Origin: Eledone cirrhosa
Taxonomy: Eukaryota
Length of the DNA stretch: 64,000 nucleotides
Assembly: GCA_964016885.1 (NCBI GenBank)
Contig: OZ024743.1
Coordinates: forward strand, 317,936,001 to 318,000,000
Reading direction: 5' to 3'
Position 1 is the stretch's first letter. Every line of letters begins with the position of its first letter. The translations under genes were made by a program, and so were the position numbers. This document shows, one piece after another, positions 4,091 through 62,660 of this stretch. The notes beneath the pieces were generated by a model. It saw only the letters and a list, made by a program, of their open reading frames with translations, was not told the origin of the DNA and did not search any database.

Positions 4091-4137
4091 ACTGCACTGA
4101 TGAAGGGTAATCACCCAGAAACATTAGTGTCTGCAGT
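4091..4137 (+). ncRNA. Type I hammerhead ribozyme motif with GUC cleavage triplet
   Basis: ACUGCA-CUGAUGA-A-GGGU(AAUC)ACCC-A-GAAA-CA(UUAG)UG-UC-UGCAGU. Confidence 0.7.
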
Positions 4138-14399: not shown

Positions 14400-14666
14400 T
14401 ATATATCACACAACTCGAATGTTACATCATATGACTTTTTTACGCCAATTCTCCCCATATAATTATATATATGTGTGTGTGTGTGTAATAGACATATATA
14501 TAGGGAAAAGCGGACGTAAAATGATGATATATATATATATATATATATCATCATTTTACGTCCGCTTTTCCCTATATATATGTCTATTACACACACACAC
14601 ACATATATATAATTATATGGGGAGAATTGGCGTAAAAAAAGTCATATGATGTAACATTCGAGTTGT

Positions 14667-24970: not shown

Positions 24971-27900
24971 CTAACAGCGCTGCGATCGAATGTGGCTTTT
25001 TAGCCCAGCCAATGATCTAAAATGTCTTGCACAGAGTCGGCAACCAAAACATTCACTGAGAATAGCCGGCTGTGGTTGGAGTTCATGCACTTTTGCATGT
25101 CGCTTGAGCCCTCCTGCTGATTTACATTCTCTACCACATGTTTGGCAAGCATGATGAGTAGCATCTCCAACAGCAGCCTGGTAGTCAACCACTGGTCTTA
25201 CTTTATGACTGCGAAGATGACTTTCGAGTCCAGCTTTGCTTAGGCAGAGTCTCGCAGAGACGTTGCAAGTCAGCATCATAGGAGGACCCTCGCCGTCTGG
25301 AAGTGCAACAGCAATGCCCTTCCTCACATTCCGCTTTACTTTCTCGTATGCGATTCAAGATGCCTCAAAGGCAACTTTTCCCTCATATACAGTCTTTCTC
25401 CATTTATTACGATCAGCAGCAATATTTTCCCATGTATCAGCAGAAATGTTAGCGTCTTTCAAAGAGGCTTTCAAGGAATCCTTATACCTCTTTTTTGGTT
25501 TATGTGGCGGTCGTTTTCCTTTAACCAACTCTCCATAAAAGAGTTGTTTTGGTATTCTAGAATCCTTCATCCTGGCAAGGTGACCACTCCAACGGAGTCG
25601 TTGCTTAAGCACAAGATCTTCTATACTGTCACACATAGAGCTTTCCAAAATCTCGACATCACTGATGTGGTCCCCCCAGTGAACGCCATGGATCCGTCTG
25701 AGGCACATCTGATGGAAACGCTCCAATTGCTTAAGGTGGTGTCGATATGTGACCCAGGTCTCGCAGGTATAAAGAAGACAAGAGAGCACACATGCCTTGT
25801 ACACCTTTACCTTTGTCCTCCTGCATATGTCTCGCCGACCCCAGAGTCGCCTTTCTAGCTTTCCGAAAGCATCACTTGCTTTCCTAATACTAAGTGAGAT
25901 TTCATTGTCAAGGTTGCTGTATCGATTGACAGTGCTTCCCAGGTAGGCAAACTGATCAACCACTCCAAGTCGTTTACCATACACATAGATATTTGGTTCA
26001 GAGTACTGCTTACCAGGGGCAGGTTGGTACATGACGACGGTTTTCTTGAGACTGACAGTCAATCCTAGGGCAGTGCAAGCATCAGAAAATGCATTCAAAA
26101 TGTGCTGCATATCACTCTCTGTGTGCGCTACAAGATCGCAATCATCTGCATACAAGAGGTCTCTTATGATTGATGTACATAGTTTTGTCTTTGCAGCAAA
26201 GCGCCTGATGTTAAATATGCTGCCTGAGGTTCGATATCGGATGTAAACACCGTGCTCGCAATTCCTGAATGCAATACAGAAAACCATTGCAAAGTATATG
26301 GCAAACAGGATCGGTGCTGGAATATCCCCCTGTTTCCCTCCATTTTTTACTGAGATAGGCTCCGACATGTTACCTCCGACATTAACCCAAGCCTTCATGT
26401 CGTCATGGAAAGACCTAACTAAAGCAAGGAACTTATCAGGGCAACGAAGTTTCTGGAAAACCTTCCATAATGCATCTCTGTTAACAGTATCGAAAGCTTT
26501 TGTCAGATCGACAAAAACTTGATACAGATCCAAACCTTGTTCCATGCACTTCTCCTGGAGCTGTCTATCTGAGAAGATCATATCAGTAGTGCCGCGTCCA
26601 GCACGAAAACCAGATTGACTTTCAGGAAGAACACAATCTGCAATGTGTGTCAGCAAACGGTCCAGAAGCACCTCACATAAAACTTTCCCTACGACAGAAA
26701 GCAATGATATACCTCTGTAGTTCCCACAATCATTCCTGTTACCCTTTCCCTTGTACAAGACCACCATTACTGCATCTCTCCAGTCCTCAGGTACGGATTC
26801 ATTAGCCCATATCCTGCCAAACAAAGAGTGAAGATGTTGCAGGAGTCTCTCACCACCATATTGAAGGAGCTCAGCATGTATCCCATCCATACCTGGAGAC
26901 CTTCCACTGTTCAGCTTCGAGATAGCCACTGCAACCTCCACAAGCGTCGGAGGTTCTGCGAGAGCTACTTTCACAGGACTTTCTGGAATGAGATTGAGGA
27001 AATCTTCACTGACGACAGACGGCTGATTCAAAAGATCATCAAAGTGCTCTCGCCACCTTCGTAGAATTCCTTGTGAGTCACGAAGAAGTTCTTTGCCATC
27101 CTTGCTGCGAAGCGGTGTCACCAGAGAAGAAGACGGTCCATAAACCTCACGCAAGAGACTGTACAACAGCTTTGTGTTATTGGAATCTGAGGCAGTTTGT
27201 ATCTCACCAGCCTTCTCACTCCACCACTGATCCTTCCTCTGAGAAAGACTCCACCTAACACGTGATTTTAGATCCTTGAGTTCCTCATGCAACGTATTCC
27301 TCTCCTGTGGTTTTGCCGTCAAGTAGCGTGACAGAGCACGCCTCTTATCAGCCAACAAGTCTTCTATAAGTACATCATTCTCATTAAACCAGTCCTGATG
27401 TTTTCTCTGCACCAATCCCAGAACACGCCTGCCTACATCATAAACTGCAGCCTGCATCTCTTCTTGCAATGTCCTCTTCACATTTTTATCCTTAAGACGA
27501 GCAGCATTCAATATTTTGGGCAGGGCAACACCAGGAGCCCGGATTTTACGTTTAGTGATTAGTTTCACTTTTGCGCGTACCAGGCGGTGGTCCGTCCAGC
27601 ACTCAGCTCCACGAAGAGCACGAACACACTGCACATCCTGTCTGTCGCGCATCCTGACTAGGACGTAGTCCAAAGGATGCCATTCCTTAGATGCAGGATG
27701 CATCCATGTGGTCTTGAATTTGTTCTTTTGTTTGGAACATGGTGTTGGTAACACACAGATCCAGCTCCTCACACATCTGCAGCAGGGGCATACCATTGTT
27801 GTTACACTTTCCCACCCATGCCTTCCGATTACATTCCATGTGTTAAAATCCCTACCCACTCTAGCACTAAAGTCACCAAGCACGATGACTTTGTCTGCCT

Positions 27901-28330
27901 GAGGGATATTTCTTAAAAGACCTTTCAATGCATGGTAAAAGGACACTTTTTCTTCATCGACAGAATTCATAGTTGGAGCATACACACTCACCAGGGTCGC
28001 ATATCTTCCTTTGTCCAGCGGAATTCTCATGGACATAAGACGCTCACTAATCCCTACTGGGAATTCTTCTAATTTATTCACAAGAACAGTCTTAACAGCA
28101 AATCCTACCCAGCCTCTCTTCTGGTTCCTTCATCTCTTCCTTTCCAGAATTCTCCACAAAATTCTGTAAGATGACCATCTCCAGCTAACCTCGTCTCAGA
28201 TAAAGCCACGATGTCAAGATCGTAACGTCGAAGCTCCTTTGCAACAAGAGCGGTCCTTCGTTCAGGACGCTCCAAGGAATCCCTGTCAAGCAGCGTCCGT
28301 ACGTTCCAGCAGCCAAGACTAAATGCCTTG
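24971..28330 (-). mobile_element. Near full-length RTE-clade LINE: APE endonuclease, RT and C-terminal C2H2 fingers; mildly disrupted
   Basis: GCWNVRTL, ALSETR, LGDF and TDH (APE); NYRGISLL, DLTKAFD, LLYADD and YLGS (RT); frameshift near 28105 and in-frame TGA at 25355. Confidence 0.95.
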
Positions 28331-28505
28331 TTTGGCTCTACTACAATGGCACGATGACGAGCGGGCCCATGCTGTGATAACCTGGGGCCCCTGCCCTTAT
28401 TGCCAATTATCTTTTTTGTTCCAGAATCTAAATTGCCAATTATCTCTTTTATATTGTTCTCGAACATCATTGAATTGGAAAAAAAAAAAAAAAAAAGTAA
28501 TAATA

Positions 28506-28551
<46 letters not shown>

Positions 28552-28574
28552 ACTATTAATAATTATTAATGCAC

Positions 28575-28815
28575 TCGTGCAATGCCTGTGCGTGACGAAT
28601 ATTTTTAAAGTGAGGAAAGACTGTGCACTGAGCCAATCCCACTCTCTGAGCGACAGTAGCTATAACCCGAAAAGAAGAAAAGATCAACATCATCGGTAAC
28701 TACTAAGCCGCAGGTTTTATGTCGGAGTTAACCCAGTTTCCTGAGATGCCTTCTCCTAGAAGAATGCTCTGACAAGGGCTAGGGGTTCATCACTCCCAGT
28801 GGTTTAACTGCGCGA
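28575..28815 (-). mobile_element. Fragment of a non-autonomous RTE-derived element, near-identical to 30869-31095
   Basis: About 230 bp shared, including gtgaggaaagactgtgcactgagccaatcccactctctgagcgacag; a diverged inverted relative lies at about 3140-3300. Confidence 0.65.
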
Positions 28816-31898: not shown

Positions 31899-32031
31899 CC
31901 GGAATCCAGATTTGAGGTATGGCCTTTGTCTTTCGGAAGACGAGAAAGATTATTTAACAAACCGGAAATGCCGAGTGTATGAAGCTTTGAATAATTTATT
32001 AGAAGATGATGCTCCACAGAATATTGATGAA
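31899..32031 (+). CDS. PLA2G4A: cPLA2 exon 6: RNPDLRYGLCLSEDEKDYLTNRKCRVYEALNNLLEDDAPQNIDE
   Basis: Matches PDLRFSMALCDQEKTFRQQRK at the start of the catalytic domain; ttcag and gtaagt. Confidence 0.93.
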
Positions 32032-33841
32032 GTAAGTTTCATAAAACATTTATAACATTATATTATAATGGTTTAAAGCGCCTAACCGGTATCTGGGTGA
32101 TATGCGGTTCGATTCCGCATAGCGGCCGAAGGCAACTTCTTTTTCCATCTGTAATCGTCTTCACCCTATTTCAGAAGCTATTTTATAGCATCTTCGCACA
32201 TGAGCACTCCATTCTTTATATCAAATTTATTATAATGGCATTAAGAAGGACTGAGTGGGTGACCCAGGAATGCTTGTTGTATGAAAAACAATTAGTATGC
32301 AATAAAATATTTTCGTTATCATATTTATAATAAAAGACATTGCCTATGATTTTCATTAAATTTTGAAAATGATCAAGATTTTTAGAGATTTAGTAACATA
32401 TATCCAACTTTCTAATCATGATGTTTGGAACATAACTTAATTCTTTCTAAACCATGTTTCTGGTGATGACTTTCAAATAATTTTTTTAATTATCAAGTAT
32501 TTGAAGAGATTTAGTAATATAACTAATTATAACTAAAGAAATATTTGGAACATAACTTAAATAAGGTTCTTATACAAAACTTTATTTTTAAATAACCGGT
32601 TTTGTATTGTAGAAGCAGGGTCAGTTTTAGAATGTTTTGTATCAAAAGGGTTAATGCACTGAATCAAGAAACTTTAACAAAAATAAAATTATACTCATAG
32701 GGAAAAGAAAAAATCCCACCGTAAAGTTTTGAGGCCCAGACCAAGCAGTATTTTGTGTTCATTTTATTTCATGTTGTTCCAATTAGCTCAGCTGAAAATA
32801 AATACCAACATTTAGAGAATTAAGCATGTGATGGACTGGTGTCCCTTCCAAGAGAATTATTGTACTTTCAGTCACTTAACACCACCAGAAATCTGGATAA
32901 GCTCCAGTCTGATGAATCACTAAGCCCCAAAACGTTTTCAACTTTAATTAAATTAAGATGAAGGTTTTTTTTCCGCCCCTTGGATGTAATATTTAATTTT
33001 GAGTCACCAACGTTACTAATTGTTTTTCATGCAACTGGCGTCCCTGGTTTTTGTTTTTTTTCAGTCATTTATTTAAGGTTTGGGAAGGGGGTTAATATTC
33101 CACATGATTAAAAATATAAAGAAGAGAAGTTGAAAATGCACATTAGTACTTTGATGAAGATTTATTTACAATAACTCACTTTACTGGTTACATGATTTTT
33201 GTCGATTTTCCAAAACGACAAGGAAAGACATGAAACTTTGCCGTAAGTTCTCGCGTCCAATTGGGGTTTGAAAAATGTTCTTGTTTTATGCAGAGAACGT
33301 GGCTCAAAGTACTGTTTGTTTAAGATACAGTTTGATTCGTTGACGATGATCACATGATTAGACATAGAATAATTCTCCATTACGTCCATGCATTAAAAAA
33401 AATCAAAGCTATGTATATTCAATATTAAGGGGTAGAATGAACAAGATTTGTATATCTGTATGTAGGTTTAAAATTTAGCTATAAAATGTATTCTCTAATT
33501 CGCCCGTGTGTTTGTGACATGTGTGAAAAATTCATCATTGTGCCCAAAGTTGAGATTTTCATCTGTGTAACACCAACATGTCAAATGACAGAATGGACAA
33601 GGATTGTGTGTGTGTTTATGTATAAATAGTTGTTAGGGAATATATATAATATAATCATCATCATCGCATTTAATATATGTTCTTCAATGTTAGCATGGGT
33701 TGGACAGACTGTTCGGGTTTTGGCATGATTTGTACAGTTGGATGTCCTTCCTGTCACCAACCATTTTGCTGGACCGGCAATCGCTCTGTATAATCAGCTC
33801 CTGATTATTACTGGAATTCTATAAGAATCCAGCTTCTATAA

Positions 33842-33930
33842 TTTTCGGCGGAAGAGGGCAGTACGTAGCTCTGATGATTGCCAAAAGCATGAAACATACT
33901 GTTAGCTTCTCTGCCTTCTTTCGCCGAAAA
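33842..33930 (+). ncRNA. Extended type I hammerhead ribozyme candidate
   Basis: 20-bp distal stem I, internal loop, AGCU/AGCU, CUGAUGA, UGC(CAAAA)GCA, GAAA, ACA(UAC)UGU, GUU triplet. Confidence 0.75.
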
Positions 33931-34131
33931 GAAGTAAGTGAGATAGTCACTACTTTAAAAATGATAGCGTAAGGTCTTCAAAATGTTTTAAATTAAACAT
34001 ACGGTATATTGCCAAATATACTATGCATACATTCATGTATACATCGCTATTTCAGAGCACCAATCCTAATACAATATACATATATATATATATATATGTA
34101 TATATATATGTATATATATATATATATAATA

Positions 34132-35245
34132 CTAGCTGGCCCGTCCGACTGGCGCCCGGCTAGGTATACCGGCATTTTATCTTTTCAGGATTTCCCCCTC
34201 TACTCCAGTGCAAAGATACCGCACGCCTTCTCAAGTCAGCGAGGGGGTGGGGGTTAACATGCTCTGGTGTTGGGTTGGAATAGCTTTTAGGATTCCCCAG
34301 CTCAGCAGCCAGTACGTTAAAGAAAATTGATAGTTACAACAATAAAGGCTGAACAGAGAACACATTTTTTAACAAACTTTACAATAATTTGTACAACCAT
34401 AATGGAAATTCCAAGTAACAGAAAATACATAAATTACATTGTTAGAGCCTCAGAGTATACAATATTTTTTGTTCGGCCCTCGGGAGCAAAGATGTTTGGC
34501 GAGCTCACCCTAGAGCATCCTACATACAATTGACCATGGGAGCATGGTTTTCCCAGATGAAGGCCAGCCACTTTTAGGGTTTGATCCTGAGCTTTGTTGA
34601 TGGTAATCGCGAAGCTTAGTCTCTCTGTTGTTCTAGTAACATTTTTTTTCTTCTGGAAAATCTGATCTTGCAGCCAGGCTGGGACTTTTTGGGTGGCATA
34701 TCGGCAGTAACAATGACGATAAGCCGTCTGAGCTTTAACAGATTAAAGTTTAAGCAAAGAATCGCTGCTTTCACCCTTAACGTGATCTTCTGAAACTAAA
34801 AAAATCAATCTGTGAACGCAGAAGTAAATATTTGGAAAGACGTTGCAGCCGAAGGAAAACAGGAAGACAATACTTTGGTTCGTGAAGACAGACAGATATT
34901 ATAAGTGTGCGACGTTATAGCTATGTATCTATTGCAGACAGCCAGACATACAGAGACATATTATAAGGGCGCGACGCTATAGCTATGTATCTATCTAAAA
35001 AGACAGACTAAGGAAGAGAGAGTAATGTCGTATAACCGGAAGTGTTGACATTTGAAAATTTTAAAGAAGTGAATATTTAAATAAACGATAAAATATCTTT
35101 AATCTTTTAATGAAATTTAGAAGACAAAAATACCCTCACTTTCTTACTTGGAAAAAGTTACATCTATGGTGCAAATTTGGTGCTGTTTGGTCCAGCCGTT
35201 TGGCGAAAAGTTTGTTACATACAGCCGTCAGCTTTATAATATAGA
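34132..35245 (-). mobile_element. Non-autonomous Helitron
   Basis: Minus strand A|TCTATATTATAAAG start, CTAG|T end with adjacent GC-rich segment; same architecture as 29054-30046. Confidence 0.65.
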
Positions 35246-35284
35246 TATATGCGCGCGCACGCGCCTGTGTGTGCGCGTGTAAAA

Positions 35285-35460
35285 GGTAAATGGAAAACAA
35301 CGCAGCAAAACAATACAGTAACGAAGATATATATTAGTTTAACGCTTGATATAGTAGGGGAAAAATCATGACGTTTCGAGCACTAGTCCTTCATCAGAAA
35401 ATAGAATGAGAAATAAAAGAAGAAATAAACAGACAGGGGTGAATGAAAAGAAAGGAAAAA
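35285..35460 (-). repeat. Hammerhead-bearing short repeat (core 35370-35397), inverted relative of about 170-335
   Basis: Minus strand CUGAUGAAGGACUAGUGCUCGAAACGUC followed by cctactatatcaagcgt-aaactaat as at 251-276. Confidence 0.7.
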
Positions 35461-35534
35461 ACTTTTTTTTTTTTTTTAGAAAAAGCATGTGTGTGTTCAG
35501 TTAGCCAATCAAATTTTCTGATTACATTTTACAG

Positions 35535-35671
35535 GTACCAAATATTGCTGTGATTGGTTCTGGAGGTGGTTTCCGTGCTATGGTAGGATTCAGTGGAGTA
35601 ATCACTGCATTACAGAAAAGTAAAATATTAGACAGTGTTACATACTTAGGAGGTCTTTCAGGGTCCTCGTG
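35535..35671 (+). CDS. PLA2G4A: cPLA2 exon 7, catalytic motifs: VPNIAVIGSGGGFRAMVGFSGVITALQKSKILDSVTYLGGLSGSSW
   Basis: GSGGGFRA (oxyanion hole and Arg) and GLSGS (nucleophile Ser) are diagnostic of group IV PLA2; tacag and gtaagt. Confidence 0.97.
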
Positions 35672-45040: not shown

Positions 45041-47135
45041 GCCTAACTGAAAATCAGTCTGTTGAAACTTTGTGGTGAGAAATAAAGAAAATTCTACTTG
45101 GGCTAACAGAAATAGCAGTGCCACTGAGAACGCCAAAATACAAGAAACACAAACCCCGGATAACAAAGACAATTATCCGCAAACAGAAGTTAAGAAATGC
45201 TGCTTGGGGGCACTATCAAGAGACCATGTCTGCGGTGGCATTTGAAGTTTACAGAAAGCAGTGAAATCATGTCAAACATATTTCCAGAATTGGAAGGCAA
45301 AATTTTGAAAGGGAACTTGCAAATGATGCCGGTCGTAATCCAAAGCGCTTTTACGCTCACGTGGAGAGAAATCAAAAACTGAATAATCAAATTGTCACTT
45401 TCCGAAACCCCGAAGATGCAGTTATTGAACACGCTGACCAACAAGCTTCTCTTTTTGCTGATGTTTTCGCAAATATCTTCAAAGAGGATGATGGCAGAGA
45501 ACCTCCAAATCTAAACATGATCGCCCCACCAATGCAGCCAACCACCGTCAGACCGGACGAGGTGGAAAAGTTGCTTTTGTCCTTAGATGTGAATAAGGGA
45601 CATGGTCGAGACGGTCTACATCCAGCGATTTTGGGTGCAGTTACACCCAACCTTGCTAAACCTCTAGCCACACTATTCAACCTATCATTGGCTACCGGAG
45701 TTGTTCCTGCCGACTGGAAAGTAGCTACTATTTGCCCTATCTTTAAAAAAGGTGACAAAGAAGATCCGGGGAACTACAGACCCGTGAGCCTCACCTCAAT
45801 TGTCTGTAAGGCCTGGGAATCTCTAATCAAGCGGGCAATTATGGCTCATCTTGCGTCTTTCACTGCCATCTCTCCATTTCAACACGGTTTCATCCCGAAA
45901 TGTTCCTGTCTCACAAACCTACTCTTGATGGAAGAATGGGTGACGAGGATACTGGACGATGGAGATGCGGCCGATATTATCTTTCTCGACTTCGCCAAAG
46001 CCTTCAACTCTGTCAACCACCGCCTGCTCCTGCATAAGCTCAGCAACTACGGTCTCCATAACTCGATTATAAAGTGGATTGGATCATTTCTTGAGGGTCG
46101 TACTTGCAGAGTTTGGATCAATGGCAGTCTGTCATCGGGGGTGGGTGTAGGCAGTGGCGTTCCCCAGGGCTCTGTGTTGGGCCCAATTCTCTTCCTTCTA
46201 TACATCAACGACATGCCGGACGTGATTGGTGGAAATGTGCTCCTATTTGCAGATGATGTGAAAATGGTAGCCCATAGGAGCGAGATCGACAATCTCAAGT
46301 CCAACCTCCAACGCACCTGGAGTTGATCCATTGACTGGGATTTATACCTCAATGTCGATAAGTGTTGCGATATGGCAGTGGGTACACCTTATAACTCAGC
46401 TCTTACCTTCAACGGTGGCACTACTCCTTTGAAGCAGGTTGAGGAGACTAAAGATCTTGGTCTGCTGGTCAACTTGTCCTTCAAATCATCAAAACATTGC
46501 ATTCAAGCCACAAACAAGGCAAGGAGCTCTCTTTGTCTTATTCGACGCTCCTTTGCCAAACTCACTCCAGAAATTTTCAGGCCTCTCTATGTAGACCTGT
46601 GAGACCGCACCTAGAATATAGCATCCAAGCATCAAACTCATATCTCATCCGGGATATCCATCACTTGGAAAGAGTTCAACAACTAGCGACTCGAATGGTA
46701 CAGGGTCTTCATGAGCTGCCCTACAAAAGCCGGCTGCAGAAGCTGAACCTTTTCTCCTTGGAGCGTCGACGGCTAAGAGGCGATCTCATTTTGGCTTACA
46801 ATCTCTTCAATGGCCATTACGATCTCCCTCAAGATCTCCTATTCACTCCGGCACTTGAAAGGGGTCTACATGGACATGACAAAAAGCTGTTTCACCACCG
46901 CTTTCGCCTAAATAGACGGAAAGCTGCTTTCTTGATCCGCATCTCTGGACCCTGGAATCGGCTTCCAGAAGAAGTAGTCAACGCGCCAACCATGCAACAA
47001 TTCAAGGCGAAATTGGACTGGTGTTGGACCACTGGGTTTCCGACTGTGTAAATTGTGCCCCTCTCCCCTCCTTACATGGCATCTGAAGCATCTATGTTTT
47101 ATTTTCTGCCAAATATATTGAATTGAATTGAATGT
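45041..47135 (+). mobile_element. 5'-truncated CR1-type LINE (RT, disrupted)
   Basis: NYRPVSLTS, DFAKAF, GVPQGSVLGP, FADD, RPHLEY, RRLRGDLI; stop at 46324 and frameshift near 46597; (TTGAA)n tail near 47118. Confidence 0.92.
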
Positions 47136-49067: not shown

Positions 49068-52000
49068 ATAATAATAATAATAATGAAATTATTGTGTACA
49101 GTGCTCAGGTGCACTACAACTCATCAAAGGTGCATGTATAGTACATAGAATAATGTACAAATGTCAGGAAAATAAACAGTGTATGAGTCATGATATAATA
49201 ACAATAACGAAATATTGTGCACAGTGCCCAGGTGCACCACAACTCATCAAAAAAGTGCATGTACAGTACATAGGGCAATGCACAAACATCAGTAAAATGA
49301 ACAGTGCACGAGTCATGATACACACATGTGTGCATGTGTATGGAAGGGGTACATCAGGTGTAGTTTTGGCGTATTTTGGGAAGCATGAGTGTCTTAAAGG
49401 ATGCAGTGTCTCGGCAGCTAACAATTGACACAGGCAGTTTGTTCCATGCTTCAGCAACTCTGAGCGTGAAAAAATGTCTGCGAAAGTCATGGGAGCTGTG
49501 CTGTTTTCTTATCTTGTAGGCATGTCCATGTGTGTTAGACACATGGAGATCAAAGAGGCGCTCAGGGTTGCAGTTGGCGAGATGGTTAAAAACTTTGTGG
49601 GTATTCACCAAGTCCATTGCCAGACGTCGGAGCTTCAATGAATCCATGCCCAGGGAAGCAAGGCGTTCAGAGTATGGTAGGTGTCTGATGGAGGGTATGC
49701 GCTTGGTTGCACATCTCTGAACAGTTTCCAGGAGGTCAATGTTCCGAGCAAGATAGGGGTTCCAGACTGATGATGCGAATTCCAAGTGTGGTCGCACCAT
49801 AGCTGTATACAGTTTTAAATAGATGGCTGGAGAGCGGCTAACAAAGGTCTTGCTGAGTGATGCCAAGACACCCTCGGCCTTCTTGACAATCTTAGAGACA
49901 TGCTTTGTCCAACGCAAATCGTTGCTGACAGTAATGCCCAGGTCACGTTCACAAGAGGACTTTTTGATGTCAGTGTTGTGGAGGGAGTATGTGGACGCTG
50001 GATTTTTCCTTCCAAAATGCATGGTGGTACACTTGTCCACAGCCAGCTTCAGTTGCCAGTCTGTGATCCATTGCTGCATTGTGTCCAGGTCTGATTGTAG
50101 GAAAGAGTTGTAAATTTCAGGATCAGTCCTTTTGATTTCAAGGTACAGCTTGATGTCATCTGCATATTTTAGTACCGTGGCATTCTGTAAGTTGGCATCT
50201 ATGTCATTAATATATGCCACAAACAAAAGAGGACCAAGAACAGATCCCTGTGGTACACCAGATGACATCTCATATGGTGAAGAATGCTGTCCTAGAACCG
50301 TGACTACTTCCTTTCGGCTGAGAATGAAGGATTTCAGCCAGTCGAAAAGATCATCCCTCACACCCATTGCAGAGAGTTTTGCCATAAGTCTTTTGTGTGG
50401 CACAGAATTAAAAGCCTTAGCAAAGTCAAGGTAAACAACATCCACCCATGAGCCGCTGTCAGTGATCCGGGTGATGTCCTTAAGAAACTCGATAAGCTGA
50501 TCACAGCAGCTGGAGTTAGGGATAAATCCAAACTGTGAGGGCCGGATGAGGCTGTGAGAGCTCCAGAAGTTCCAAAGTGTTTCTCTGACACAGGATTCCA
50601 TCAGTTTGGCCATACAGCTAGTAAGACTGACTGGACGATAGTTGACAGGTGACATGCGGTTGCCCTTTTTGAACAGGGGAATGACACTGGCAGTTTTCCA
50701 CTGCTCCGGAGTAGCACCATTGCTGAGACAGTATTGAAAGAAAAAAGAAAGCTGGCGCAAAAGGAAATCCCCGCCACGTTTGAGAAGCAGGTATGTCACA
50801 CCATCAAGACCAGGGGAGGCATAGTTGCGCTTATTCTTAAGGTGACGTCGCAACATTGCAGGTGTAAATTCCATAGTTGTTATGGAATTTGATGTTAGAG
50901 ATGGTGGAGATGGTACATTCTGGTCCTCAACAGTAAAAATACTTGCATAGCACTCAGCAATGAGTTCTGCGCATTCCTTGGGATCGTCAGTGATCTGGCT
51001 TGTGTGGGGATTGCGAAGAGGACCAACTGGAGAGTGAGGTCTCTGCTTTGAATGAACATATTTCCAGAACACCTTACTGTCAGGATTGGTTGCGATGCAC
51101 TGTTCAAATTCAAGCACTGCCTTCTTTGTCACTTGCTTGAGATGGTTAGAAGATTTATTCCACTTTTTTCTGTTGGCATCTGATCTATGCAGTTTATATT
51201 CCCGTTCAGCGTTCCGACGTTCTTTCCTGGCAAGTCGGACCGCTGAAGTTTCCCAGATTGCACTTTTAGGGTGGTTATTTTTCCGCTTCCGTGGCACTGA
51301 TGCTGCACACGCTATCCATATTGAGTCCAGGATGCTCTGGAGTATAGAGTTCACATCTCCAGAGTTATACATCTCATGCCAGTTTGGGCGCTGTAGCTCA
51401 GTGCAGTACAAGTTCCAATCCGCCCTCTTCCAATCAAAGCAAGCAGATTGGAGATGGCCCTGGTTTTTGTTGCTGCCCTCAAGTGCCAGATTGGCAATGA
51501 TCATAGCATGATCAGAGTCGCCTAGAGGTTCCTCAGTAGTACAACTGATAACCACTTCAGGAGTAGTGGTGAAGATCAGGTCCAAAGTGTTGTCACCTCT
51601 TGTTGGAGAGGTGACTACTTGTGACAGTTTGAGTCCAGCACTAGTTCAAGGAAATCGTTTGCACCCTGTGGCCAACGAAAGGTTTCCCAATCGATCTCAG
51701 GATGATTGAAGTCACCTGCAATAAACACATAAGTGGCTGTTTTCTTGGCAGCAACTCTGAGGATATCGCAAAGCTGTGTGTCCTGATGGTAGTTTGGGGG
51801 GCGATAAACAACACCAAGCAGAAGTGTTGACATGGTCATACGTATGTCACAGAAAAAAACTTCTTCCTGTGATTCGTTCAAATCAACGCAAGGAATTACC
51901 GAAAAGTTTGAACGAACGTAGACCATCACACCACCACCACGGCGGTTAATGCGGTCCTTGCGGAAAAGGTTGTACCCAGTAATGGTGAAAACCCCATCAC

Positions 52001-52245
52001 AGAGTAAGGAATGTGCCCATGTTTCCGTGACTGTGATGAAGTCAGGGTCGATGCTTCTGACGTAGGATTCGAACAGATGTATCTTGTTGCATAAACTGCG
52101 AGCATTTAATGACAACAATTTGTACCCTGCTCGCAGTTTATGATGGTGTGTAGAGGGTGGCAGGTTGTTCTGGTTTAGTTTCCCAGAGTTGTAGCAGTTT
52201 TTACATTGCCAGTTATTGCGGGTAGATCACACTCAGACCAGCTGG
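49068..52245 (-). mobile_element. CR1-type LINE: ORF1 C-terminus plus nearly intact ORF2 (APE and RT), one frameshift near 51625, stacked 3' ends
   Basis: LSLNARSL, TETW, VYRPP, GDFNHP and SDH (APE); NYRPVSLTS, GVPQGSVLGP, KYADD and RPHLEF (RT); 743-aa ORF. Confidence 0.95.
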
Positions 52246-57994: not shown

Positions 57995-60900
57995 CTATAT
58001 AATTATTGCAGGCGACCTAAACGGTCACGTTGGACAACATTGTGACGGCTACGACGAAATCCATGGAGGCTATGGGTTTGGTACTAGAAATGAGGAAGGC
58101 TCCAGAATCCTGGAATTCTGCGACGCAAATAACCTAACTATCTGCAACACTAACTTCAAAAAACGAGACAATCACTTGATCACCTACAGATAAGGGGAAC
58201 ATACTAGCCAGGTAGATTATATCCTTACCAGAAGACGTGACAAAGTGACTGTCGTAAACACTAAATCCCTCCCCCATGAAGAATGCACTTCCCAACATAG
58301 ACTGATAATTAGCGACCTAATAGTCAGGACGAGACGTACTAGACAACAGAAGAGGACTATCCTCAGGAGAAAAATATGGAAGCTAAAGGACCCCACAGCC
58401 AAAAATAAATTCCAAAGCATATTACTTGATGCTTTCGACAGTGAGGAAGAGCAATTAGAGACGTACAAGGTAGAGGAACAGTGGAAATTCCTGAAAGCAA
58501 ACCTGCTGACGGCGGCAGACGAAGTCTGTGGCTGGAACAGGCCTGTAGGCAGGAGGAGAGTAACATGGTGGTGGAACAGTAAGGTGGAGGGGTCAATTAA
58601 GGCCAAAAAGCAGGCTTGGAAAGTATGGCGGGATGGGGGAAGCAGAGAAGACTATCAAGTGGCCAGGAGGGAAGCTAGGAGACAAGTGTACTTCGCAAGA
58701 AGGGAAGCTAGGAGACAAGTGTACTTCGCAAGAAGGGAAGCAGAGAAAAGAAAGTTCAAGCATGTTCTACAACGCGATGACCAAAAACGTGAGGTGTTCA
58801 GGATTGCTAGGCAATGTGTCAAGGAAAACAGTGATATTGTCGGGGAGAAGTGTGTACTTAATGATGACGGCATACTTGCCATCACCGACGCCGATAAGAA
58901 GGTAGCTTGGAAGTGTCACTATGAAAGGCTACTAAATGAGGAGAATAAATGGGAGAAAGACAGTCTCCCCCACATCGACCCAATAGAGGGACCAGCAGTG
59001 TTAGTCGAGGGTAGTATAATAAGTAAGGCAATCAAAGATATGAAGACAGGCAAGGCGGCTGGGCCTTCGGAAATAGTTGCCGAGATGCTGAAGGCATCTG
59101 GTACGGTGGGACACACCATGGTCACCCGGATAGTCAACCAAGTCATACAGAATGGGGTTGTTCCGAAGGACTGGCGCAGCAGCATTATCGTTAACTGTTA
59201 TAAGGGTAAAGGAGATGCCCTAGATAGGAGTAACTATAGAGGCATTAAATTAATCGACCAGGTCATGAAGGTCACGGAAAAAGTTATAGCGCAACTAATC
59301 AGAGAGCGAATTGATCTAGATGAAATGCAGTTCGGGTTTGTGTCAGGAAAAAGTACCACAGGCGCTCTTTTCATTGTACGACAACTACAGGAGAAGTACC
59401 TAGCTAAAAGTAAACCCCTATACTTAGCTTTCGTCGACTTGGAGAAGGCCTTCGACAGAGTCCCCCGTTCCATTATCTGGTGGGCTCTTAGAAAACTAGA
59501 TGTTGATGAATGGCTTGTGAGAGCTATACAAGCCATGTATAAAGAAACAGTTAGCAAGGTTAGAATTAACAACGAATATAGTGAAGAGTTTAGTGTAAAA
59601 GTTGGTGTTCATCAGGGCTCTGTTCTTAGCCCCCTACTATTTATTATTGCCCTCCAGGCTATAACAGTGGAGTTCAAGACCGGCTGCCCATGGGAACTCC
59701 TATACGCAGATGATCTAACGCTCATAGCTGAATCAATGGCCGAGCTAGAGAAGAAATTCCAAACATGGAAGCACGGCCTAGAATCAAAAGGCCTTAAAAT
59801 TAACCTAGCTAAGACTAAAGTTCTAGTTTGTAAGAAAGAAAATAAGGCGGCGGTCCCCTCCGGGAAGTGGCCATGCGCAGAGTGTAGGAAAGGCGTAGGT
59901 AGAAATTCCATTTTGTGTCCCAAATGCAAAGTTTGGGTGCATAAAAGATGTAGTGGGATCACAGGTAAGCTAACTAAGAACATAGATTTTACATGTGGCC
60001 AGTGTTCTGGGGATATAAGTAGCAGCAAGTGCCCACAAAATACTAGCTCTTTCAACTGCGCAGAGGGTTCTATAGAAATAGTGGACAGCTTCCGTTACCT
60101 GGGTGACAAAATCAGCAGTGGGGGAGGGTGCTCTGAAAGTACAGTAGCTAGAGTCAGAACTGGGTGGAAAAAGTTCAGAGAGCTTATACCACTATTAGCC
60201 GCTAAAGGGTTCTCCCTAAAAATGAAAGGCAGGCTGTACGATGCCTGCATACGAACAGCAATGTTGCATGGCAGTGAGACCTGGGCATTGTGTGCAGAGG
60301 ATATACGCAGACTAGAGAGAAACGAAGCTTGCATGCTCCGCTGGATGTGTAATAGTAATATACGTGAACGACAAAGCATAAACGAACTAAGGAAAAAATT
60401 AGAAATAAGAGGGATCAGATGTTGTTTACTAGAGAGAAGGCTACGTTGGTATGGTCACGTGATGCGCATGAAGGATGATAGCTGTATAACAAAGTGCAGG
60501 GCAATAAAGATAGACGGTAGCCACGGAATAGGCAGACCCAGAAAAACCTGGGACGACTTGATAAACTCCGACCTCTCACACTTACACCTCACCAAGACAA
60601 TGTCACTGGACCGAGACCTTTGGCGGTACTCAGTAATAGAGAAGACCCGCCTTGCCAGTAGGCATCTCTAACAAAATACACCCCGTCCCACCACCACCCC
60701 CACCACCACCCCATCCACACCACCCCGTTCTATGTAAAGTTATGTTGGTGCCGCGCCATCCAAGTCGAAACAAATGAGATCGTGTAGGTGTCACGACAAA
60801 AAAACACACAGTCCATGCTGTAATGTGGCCGTGTAGGCAACACGGTAAAAACCTCCCAGACCCACACTGTAAATGTCGTTGGTGTTAGGAAGGGCATCCA

Positions 60901-62317: not shown

Positions 62318-62660
62318 TCATCATCATCATCATCATTTTATGTCCTCTTTTCCCTCCTTGCAAGGGTGGGATGGGAACTGATTCTGGCTTGATTTCTACA
62401 GCTGGATGCCCTTCCTAACACCAACCTCATTTTACAGTGAGTGCTGGGTGCTTTTTTGCCGTCGCACCTCCACGACCACTTTTCAGTGGAATGATAGGGA
62501 TCCCAGTCCTATCATCTCATTTCTACAGCTGAGTAAACTGGAGCAATGTGAAATAAAGTGTCTTGCTCAAGGAAACAACACATCACCTGGTCTGAGAATT
62601 GAACTCACAACCTTTCGATTGCAAGGCCAATGCTCTAACCACTAAGCTATGTGCCTCCAT
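62318..62660 (-). mobile_element. Composite SINE (family B head plus RTE-type 3' tail), near-identical to 42450-42750
   Basis: gcaagggtgggatgggaactgattctggcttgatttctacagctggatgc shared. Confidence 0.7.

Follow-up and report, generated by a model that had tools for sequence, protein, structure and literature searches.

The hammerhead at positions 33842-33930 of the window, the 64,000-nt stretch of Eledone cirrhosa DNA analysed here, is most likely ordinary mobile DNA lying in an intron rather than a ribozyme kept by its host. Very probably, it belongs to a copy that was inserted recently and is a dead end, one of many copies of a 314-nt repeat whose likely mode of propagation is that of a non-LTR retrozyme. 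On every criterion that sequence can test, this unit is a member of the animal non-LTR retrozymes: its length falls within 150-450 bp, it carries a canonical type I hammerhead, it occurs in tandem and dispersed copies, it is non-coding, and Penelope-like elements (PLEs) coexist with it.

Reading of the sequence and checking of the pairs recovered every hammerhead element where the first-pass annotation had placed it. The elements are the following:

33842-33930, + strand: type I hammerhead, in the interior of the 314-nt unit, predicted cut after 33903
33842-33861 with 33911-33930, + strand: outer stem I, 20 bp, two of them G-U
33862-33866 (UACGU) and 33908-33910 (UCU), + strand: stem I internal loop
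33867-33870 and 33904-33907, + strand: inner stem I, 4 bp, AGCU on both sides
33871-33877, + strand: core CUGAUGA
33878-33890, + strand: stem II, 3 bp (UGC/GCA), CAAAA loop (5 nt), U-U closing pair
U33878 opposite U33890, + strand: U-U mispair, positions 10.1/11.1
33891-33894, + strand: GAAA
33894-33902, + strand: stem III, 3 bp (ACA/UGU), UAC loop
33901-33903, + strand: GUU triplet

The core nucleotides C3 U4 G5 A6 N7 G8 A9, G12 A13 A14, A15.1-U16.1 and H17 are all present, U being permitted at H17 by the core definition as worded in PMC3088659. Three helices are found with stem I open, and the Watson-Crick pair at 10.1-11.1 is absent (U-U). The type I architecture is canonical, as had been proposed, and the layout of loops 1 and 2 is HH9-like. 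The predicted minimum free energy (MFE) is −37.9 kcal/mol, with a z of −5.41 and none of 200 shuffled sequences equally stable, and the hammerhead descriptor matched four times in the window, this motif included, while none of the 30 Markov controls gave a match. Stem III, closed as it is, is nevertheless weak (pair probability 0.13), and the active fold is less stable than the MFE structure by 2.2-2.9 kcal/mol. When 351 nt were scanned with Rfam, the best ribozyme match was HH9 (RF02275), at 20.6 bits (E 0.011) for a gathering score of 52; a copy of subfamily A1 (see below) gave 25.1 bits against the same model. The whole-window Rfam scan gave no hammerhead match. Rfam matches to miRNAs (mir-449, mir-3202 and others) were below threshold and were set aside as hairpin or microsatellite noise.

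The hammerhead is in sense orientation to the pre-mRNA of a cytosolic phospholipase A2 (cPLA2) gene on the + strand, of which four coding exons were found upstream by homology. The parts of the gene that surround it are:

31899-32031, + strand: upstream cPLA2-like coding exon
32032-35534, + strand: host intron, 3.5 kb, GT..AG, phase 0, containing the hammerhead
35535-35671, + strand: exon with the GLSGS nucleophile motif (Pfam PLA2_B, PDB 1cjy)

The last exon matched Pfam PLA2_B with an E of 3e-10 and residues 187-230 of human cPLA2 (PDB 1cjy) with an E of 3e-13, in agreement with the catalytic-serine exon that had been placed 1.6 kb downstream of the motif.

Several other repeats were noted in the window. 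Minimal hammerhead-like repeats with the core CTGATGAAGGACTA lie at 217 (+), 35397 (−) and 56746 (−), the first two with a palindromic AACGT at stem III; one of these three is antisense and precedes the catalytic exon by about 140 nt. Degenerate hammerhead-like cores are present at 898 (−), 32909 (+) and 43884 (−), and one of them shares the intron of the hammerhead. A Helitron-like fragment, 34132-34742, directly follows the TA tract listed below, and contains a minus-strand frame that we take to resemble the C-terminus of a PIF1 helicase. Long LINE-like endonuclease/reverse-transcriptase frames are found in cPLA2 introns at 25358-28659 (−), 45265-47048 (+), 49357-52226 (−) and 58194-60668 (+). 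Positions 14495-14580 form a perfect inverted repeat with a (TA)n centre, MITE-like, and 62592-62649 (−) gives a weak, partial tRNA-like match (29.4 bits), possibly the head of a SINE.

Homology among copies of the hammerhead-bearing repeat starts at 33764 and stops at 34072, after which comes (TA)n. The unit and its immediate neighbours are:

33717-33763, + strand: piece of a different, very abundant repeat, adjoining the 5′ end of the unit and outside it
33764-34072, + strand: 314-nt hammerhead-bearing repeat unit, subfamily A3, 5′ truncation at the unit junction, tail at the 3′ end
34045-34072, + strand: 3′ tail, about 28 nt, on one end only of inverted insertions
34073-34131, no strand: (TA)n tract, likely target site; other copies end in (TA)n too

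The piece at 33717-33763 showed high depth, with loose ends on both sides (runs X1, X4, X5). There are hundreds of copies of the unit itself. Some are monomers, others partial tandems or inverted pairs placed head to head, and (TA)n is their typical end. Counting copies, a check that the first-pass annotation had suggested, revealed that the motif is multi-copy. A DNA search of the animal's own genome (3.0 Gb) gave 43 matches at 94-100%, a result resting on 40 scored of 1,735 candidates, and exact patterns for three subfamilies were found 174 (A1), 105 (A2) and 43 (A3) times, with 0 for the backward controls. A looser core pattern gave 1,732 matches versus 14 in the control; judged by eye, the family of the window accounts for about two thirds of the first 100 rows that it gave. 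About a fifth of these rows belong to a separate hammerhead family, of the type seen at window position 4097 (+), with a GGGT/ACCC stem II and a 6-bp stem I.

One 314-nt unit follows directly on another, a unit being preceded by the tail of its neighbour, in runs of up to three. In an A3 trimer (L064) the tandem period is 314 nt and consecutive units each hold a complete hammerhead. The head-to-tail joint 34072>33764 is present in contigs, and also in raw reads from other DNA runs, including those of other individuals. The window copy is a lone monomer. None of the six-frame ORFs listed over the unit reached at least 90 aa. Regarding the insertion site, the intron flank 33390-33610 is uncovered by the runs of other organisms, RAD reads (three other individuals) and contigs (two other organisms) miss the unique junction, and the small word shares of organisms B and C correspond to related repeat fragments only.

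The first-pass annotation had seen in the motif a candidate for a domesticated ribozyme. A host-kept intronic ribozyme of the RECK/HH9 type known from amniotes would agree with the architecture, the intronic sense position and the best, albeit below-threshold, Rfam ribozyme match. In the account given by PMC6155905, the domesticated amniote motifs are defined by cross-species conservation in a fixed intron. Low copy number, freedom from a mobile context, a ribozyme conserved beyond its flanks and an RF02275 score of at least 52 bits all fail to be found here: the motif lies inside a multi-copy mobile unit, and further hammerhead-like repeats occur in the cPLA2 gene, on both strands. The window copy differs from the A3 majority by 3 substitutions and 1 loop II deletion, two of these four differences being inside the ribozyme; the whole unit is equally preserved, and the ribozyme is not singled out. 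With a divergence of 0.8%, versus 1.3-7.7% in 29 other A3 copies, it is the least diverged of the 30 measured (L117, which is outside the A3 clade, was excluded from this set), and we therefore consider it a recent insertion. Across dispersed A3 copies, stem I has diverged by 4.3% (66/1,543), versus 2.8% and 3.4% in the flanking parts. Stem I thus decays as fast as its flanks, and the ribozyme is not protected after insertion. Domestication is, in our view, very improbable.

The U-U mispair and the GUU triplet, which had been pointed out as deviations from the usual hammerhead, are indeed present at those places, but they are not of local origin. As the window copy falls inside the A3 clade (support 100/96), both are subfamily traits, inherited from the source element. 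In the older subfamily A1, stem II is a 4-bp stem closed by A-U, and 88 of the first 100 copies listed have GUC; A2 has U-U, and around three quarters of its first 100 listed copies have GUU; in A3, which is young, U-U is joined by a C-G to U-A change, with 35 GUU, 5 GUC and 3 GAU among 43 (triplets all by eye). From nesting and core state only, we infer the order A1, A2, A3; in the tree itself the A1/A2 branching is without resolution, the bootstrap is not settled and the root is arbitrary. Divergences overlap, with means of 5.1, 6.5 and 4.9% for A1, A2 and A3 (one row per group being removed by the length and 25% filter) and medians of 3.8, 5.3 and 2.6%. Compensatory changes separate the subfamilies, namely G-C to C-G in stem I and C-G to U-A in stem II, and covariation is 0.148 versus 0.107 after shuffling (0/500), for copies that are related and a shuffle uncorrected for this kinship. 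The compensatory stem changes indicate that the fold was under selection in the source lineage while the element multiplied.

A recent insertion could still have consequences for its host, if the window copy were an efficient monomeric ribozyme cutting nascent cPLA2 pre-mRNA and lowering or altering the mRNA, a recent accidental regulatory mutation in other words. This we judge unlikely, in spite of the sense orientation within the intron, the intact core, the 3-bp stem III, the HH9-like loop 1 and loop 2 residues and the small energy distance to the active fold. U-U is also the best-tolerated mispair at 10.1-11.1, according to the mutational account in PMC3088659. The stem III of the family is near-palindromic, with a predicted dimer duplex of −6.9 kcal/mol; the private substitution G33897U weakens this duplex to −0.1 kcal/mol in the window copy, and also removes a predicted inhibitory pairing between core and loop III that is present in other copies. 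The G33897U copy could thus cleave better as a monomer than its siblings. Slow cleavage is nevertheless expected, because U-U, GUU, a weak stem III and a loop II of 5 nt, instead of 6 nt as in 27 of 36 close copies, are combined in it. GUU cleaves slower than GUC, and a cut in an intron need not block splicing. Published figures point in the same direction: the monomer of axolotl HHR_Amex2, whose stem II also has U-U at its base, is reported to cleave 22% in 1 h, and its dimer more (PMC7229834), and 8 of 9 predicted Xenopus retrozyme dimers are described as showing no cleavage (bioRxiv 10.64898/2026.07.22.740005). Some cleavage by the window motif is plausible. On these predictions, the window copy would probably cleave the cPLA2 intron slowly, with probably little effect on splicing, and the word "fast", attached earlier to this type of architecture, is doubtful as a description of it.

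The way in which the family inserts was deduced from 101 distinct loci, with a head-to-tail junction in 61 and an inverted piece in 47. At these loci, 3′ ends cluster at 34040-34044 (64 pieces) and at 34070-34071 (114 pieces, tandem-junction pieces included), and 5′ starts are dispersed and do not accumulate at the predicted cut after 33903. The tail of about 28 nt is on one end only in 25 of the 29 classifiable divergent inverted loci; among the other inverted loci, 15 have one unclassifiable end and 3 another arrangement. The insertion marks of PLEs, as set out by Craig et al. (bioRxiv 10.1101/2021.04.23.441226), are partial tandems, an inverted 5′-truncated copy, a one-sided tail of 30-40 bp and a bias for (TA)n. 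Partial tandems, inverted truncated copies, a one-sided tail and a microsatellite target are all present in the family of the window. Autonomous PLEs coexist with it in the genome, where ORFs with a reverse transcriptase plus a C-terminal GIY-YIG domain are abundant (10,595 GIY-YIG candidates).

Circular RNA expression was shown for the retrozymes of Cervera and de la Pena (2020, PMC7229834). For the window family, the existence of tandem arrays would suit a satellite spread by DNA-level recombination, with the hammerhead as an inactive passenger. Fixed 3′ ends, random 5′ ends, inversions and dispersed (TA)n targets are, however, marks of reverse transcription, and the compensatory changes keep the fold; we give the satellite reading hardly any credence.

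The same marks could mean that the unit is the solo pseudo-LTR (pLTR), a 5′-truncated end, of an autonomous PLE. Xenopus retrozymes are homologous to pLTRs in the description of bioRxiv 10.64898/2026.07.22.740005, and in E. cirrhosa the PLE 3′ regions downstream of RT-GIY-YIG ORFs at L100, L110 and L115 hold minimal hammerhead-like motifs with U-U closing stem II. What precedes the units, up to trimers, is nonetheless the tail of another 314-nt unit and not coding sequence. The hammerheads of pLTRs, moreover, are typically minimal as presented in PMC4209133, whereas in the window motif stem I is long and interrupted by an internal loop. No terminal sequence shared by the unit and PLEs was detected in 50 loci with PLE endonuclease matches, out of the 10,595 GIY-YIG candidates; this search covered 30 loci and 20 longer stretches, by BLAST with units A and B, and returned only independent insertions. 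A pLTR origin appears therefore quite improbable, and a separate, non-coding retrozyme is the reading that we retain.

The hammerhead-like motifs of the PLE 3′ regions, read by eye, have variant cores; a fourth one is found at L097, and those of L100 and L110 share the UGC/GCA stem with the window hammerhead. In L114 a PLE ORF is followed, after 1.3 kb, by a hammerhead, which was considered as a link to a partner and proved to be a separate nested repeat. This short repeat (L114:3132-3326, also in L099, L102 and L106) is nested in (TA)n, with a hammerhead core inside a long inverted repeat; it has U-U at stem II and GUU, and is 74% like family B, described below, over 80 nt. Near a Penelope-type ORF, at L107:8068-9553, hammerhead motifs occur four times in tandem, at intervals of about 490-510 nt.

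In the window family, copying starts 140-170 nt downstream of the cut and runs through the cut beyond one unit. From this we infer a template that was circular or an uncut multimer, rather than a linear monomer left by cleavage. A sister family, B, bears on this point. Its 310-nt unit can be aligned to that of the window over its full length, with the same hairpin layout, and its hammerhead has U-U, GUA and a palindromic stem III. An exact 31-mer of B gave 4,248 matches genome-wide, versus 0 in the control. Examples are:

L031:1-880: family B
L197-L206 (G000:C1, e.g. 5388577-5392836): family B

Ten B loci were analysed, the arrays that come first on one contig, and nine of them consist of two arms placed head to head, with up to 14 units per arm. 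In these nine pairs one end falls at 266-277 of the unit and the other at 301-308, each within (TA)n; the minus-strand arms are continuous, apparent splits coming from palindromic words. Among full B periods, 72 of 82 are identical to the reference unit, and the family, with near-identical units in dispersed arrays, is apparently active now. At two B loci a private base recurs in all the full periods examined, on both arms in the case of L201. Such a pattern is predicted by a single circular template, and fits rolling-circle copying of one circle; minor variant master arrays could also yield it. As a counter-point, the three units of the A3 trimer differ mutually in a mixed pattern, for which a single pass round one circle is insufficient without later conversion or duplication.

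A cycle can be proposed from these elements. Tandem copies would be transcribed, and two hammerheads, probably dimerised through the palindromic stem III, would cut after GUH and free 314-nt monomers. A host ligase would then circularise the monomers, by analogy with the coral, mussel and axolotl retrozymes. Finally, the reverse transcriptase and GIY-YIG endonuclease of a PLE, probably of the Neptune type, would nick (TA)n, start synthesis at one or the other of two fixed, AT-rich priming sites separated by some 28 nt, and go round the circle, to yield the monomers, partial tandems and head-to-head inverted pairs observed. With one unit and one ribozyme, the window copy cannot release a circle. 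For the lineage as a whole, we put at even chances a stronger proposal. Under it, this retrozyme lineage is active at present, and its insertions are a record of circular RNA being reverse transcribed by Penelope-like machinery, in rolling-circle fashion and from two primers; the record would consist of head-to-head arrays with as many as 14 identical units in each arm, two fixed priming sites and template-specific variants in every unit. The lineage would also have arrived repeatedly at hammerheads that are slowed (U-U, GUU or GUA), which would let circles survive reverse transcription.

Compared to known systems, the window family resembles the metazoan non-LTR retrozymes described by Cervera and de la Pena (PMC7229834) in its 150-450-bp unit with a canonical type I hammerhead, in tandem and dispersed copies, in a GC content under 50%, in having no ORF and in coexisting with PLEs. 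It departs from the descriptions in that source by its predominance of monomers and partial tandems, its inversions, its one-sided tail and its (TA)n targets. It shares co-occurring PLEs and intronic monomers with the Xenopus retrozymes of Li, Clavereau and Pollet (bioRxiv 10.64898/2026.07.22.740005), whose monomers are reported on all chromosomes, 42-44% of them in introns, together with Neptune and Poseidon PLEs; there the link to PLEs is pLTR homology, whereas here it is the insertion architecture, and no mollusc is among the groups named. PLEs with hammerheads in their pLTRs (described by Cervera and de la Pena in 2014, PMC4209133, and by Craig et al. in 2021) resemble the family in their partial tandems, in an inverted copy that is 5′-truncated, in a tail at one end and in (TA)n targeting; unlike them, the unit is without a reverse transcriptase or endonuclease ORF, and its hammerhead is canonical, not minimal. 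The amniote HH9/HH10 motifs (RF02275; PMC6155905) are likewise type I, with a stem I internal loop, a CAAA-type loop II and an intronic position; as PMC6155905 presents them they are conserved across birds and mammals, whereas the window motif is a young multi-copy insertion with U-U and GUU.

The locus itself is ordinary and matters little. What it illustrates is that an intronic hammerhead, however well formed, can be a passenger, and that copies should be counted before domestication is claimed. In the literature searched, the supplements of which may list one, we found no cephalopod retrozyme and no inverted (TA)n retrozyme signature; if the reading as an active lineage is true, this would be the first description of a cephalopod retrozyme in the searchable literature. 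That PLE enzymes copy circular RNA and so mobilise animal retrozymes is presented as a proposal, not as shown, in the papers drawn upon here. Families A and, above all, the very young B, with the marks of a PLE on a ribozyme circle, offer a concrete substrate on which to test this mobilisation, and would, if the reading is true, be direct genomic evidence for a rolling-circle PLE mechanism that has so far only been proposed. The stepwise drift from A-U and GUC to U-U and GUU, with compensatory stems, also provides a natural series in which to ask whether slower cleavage favours propagation.
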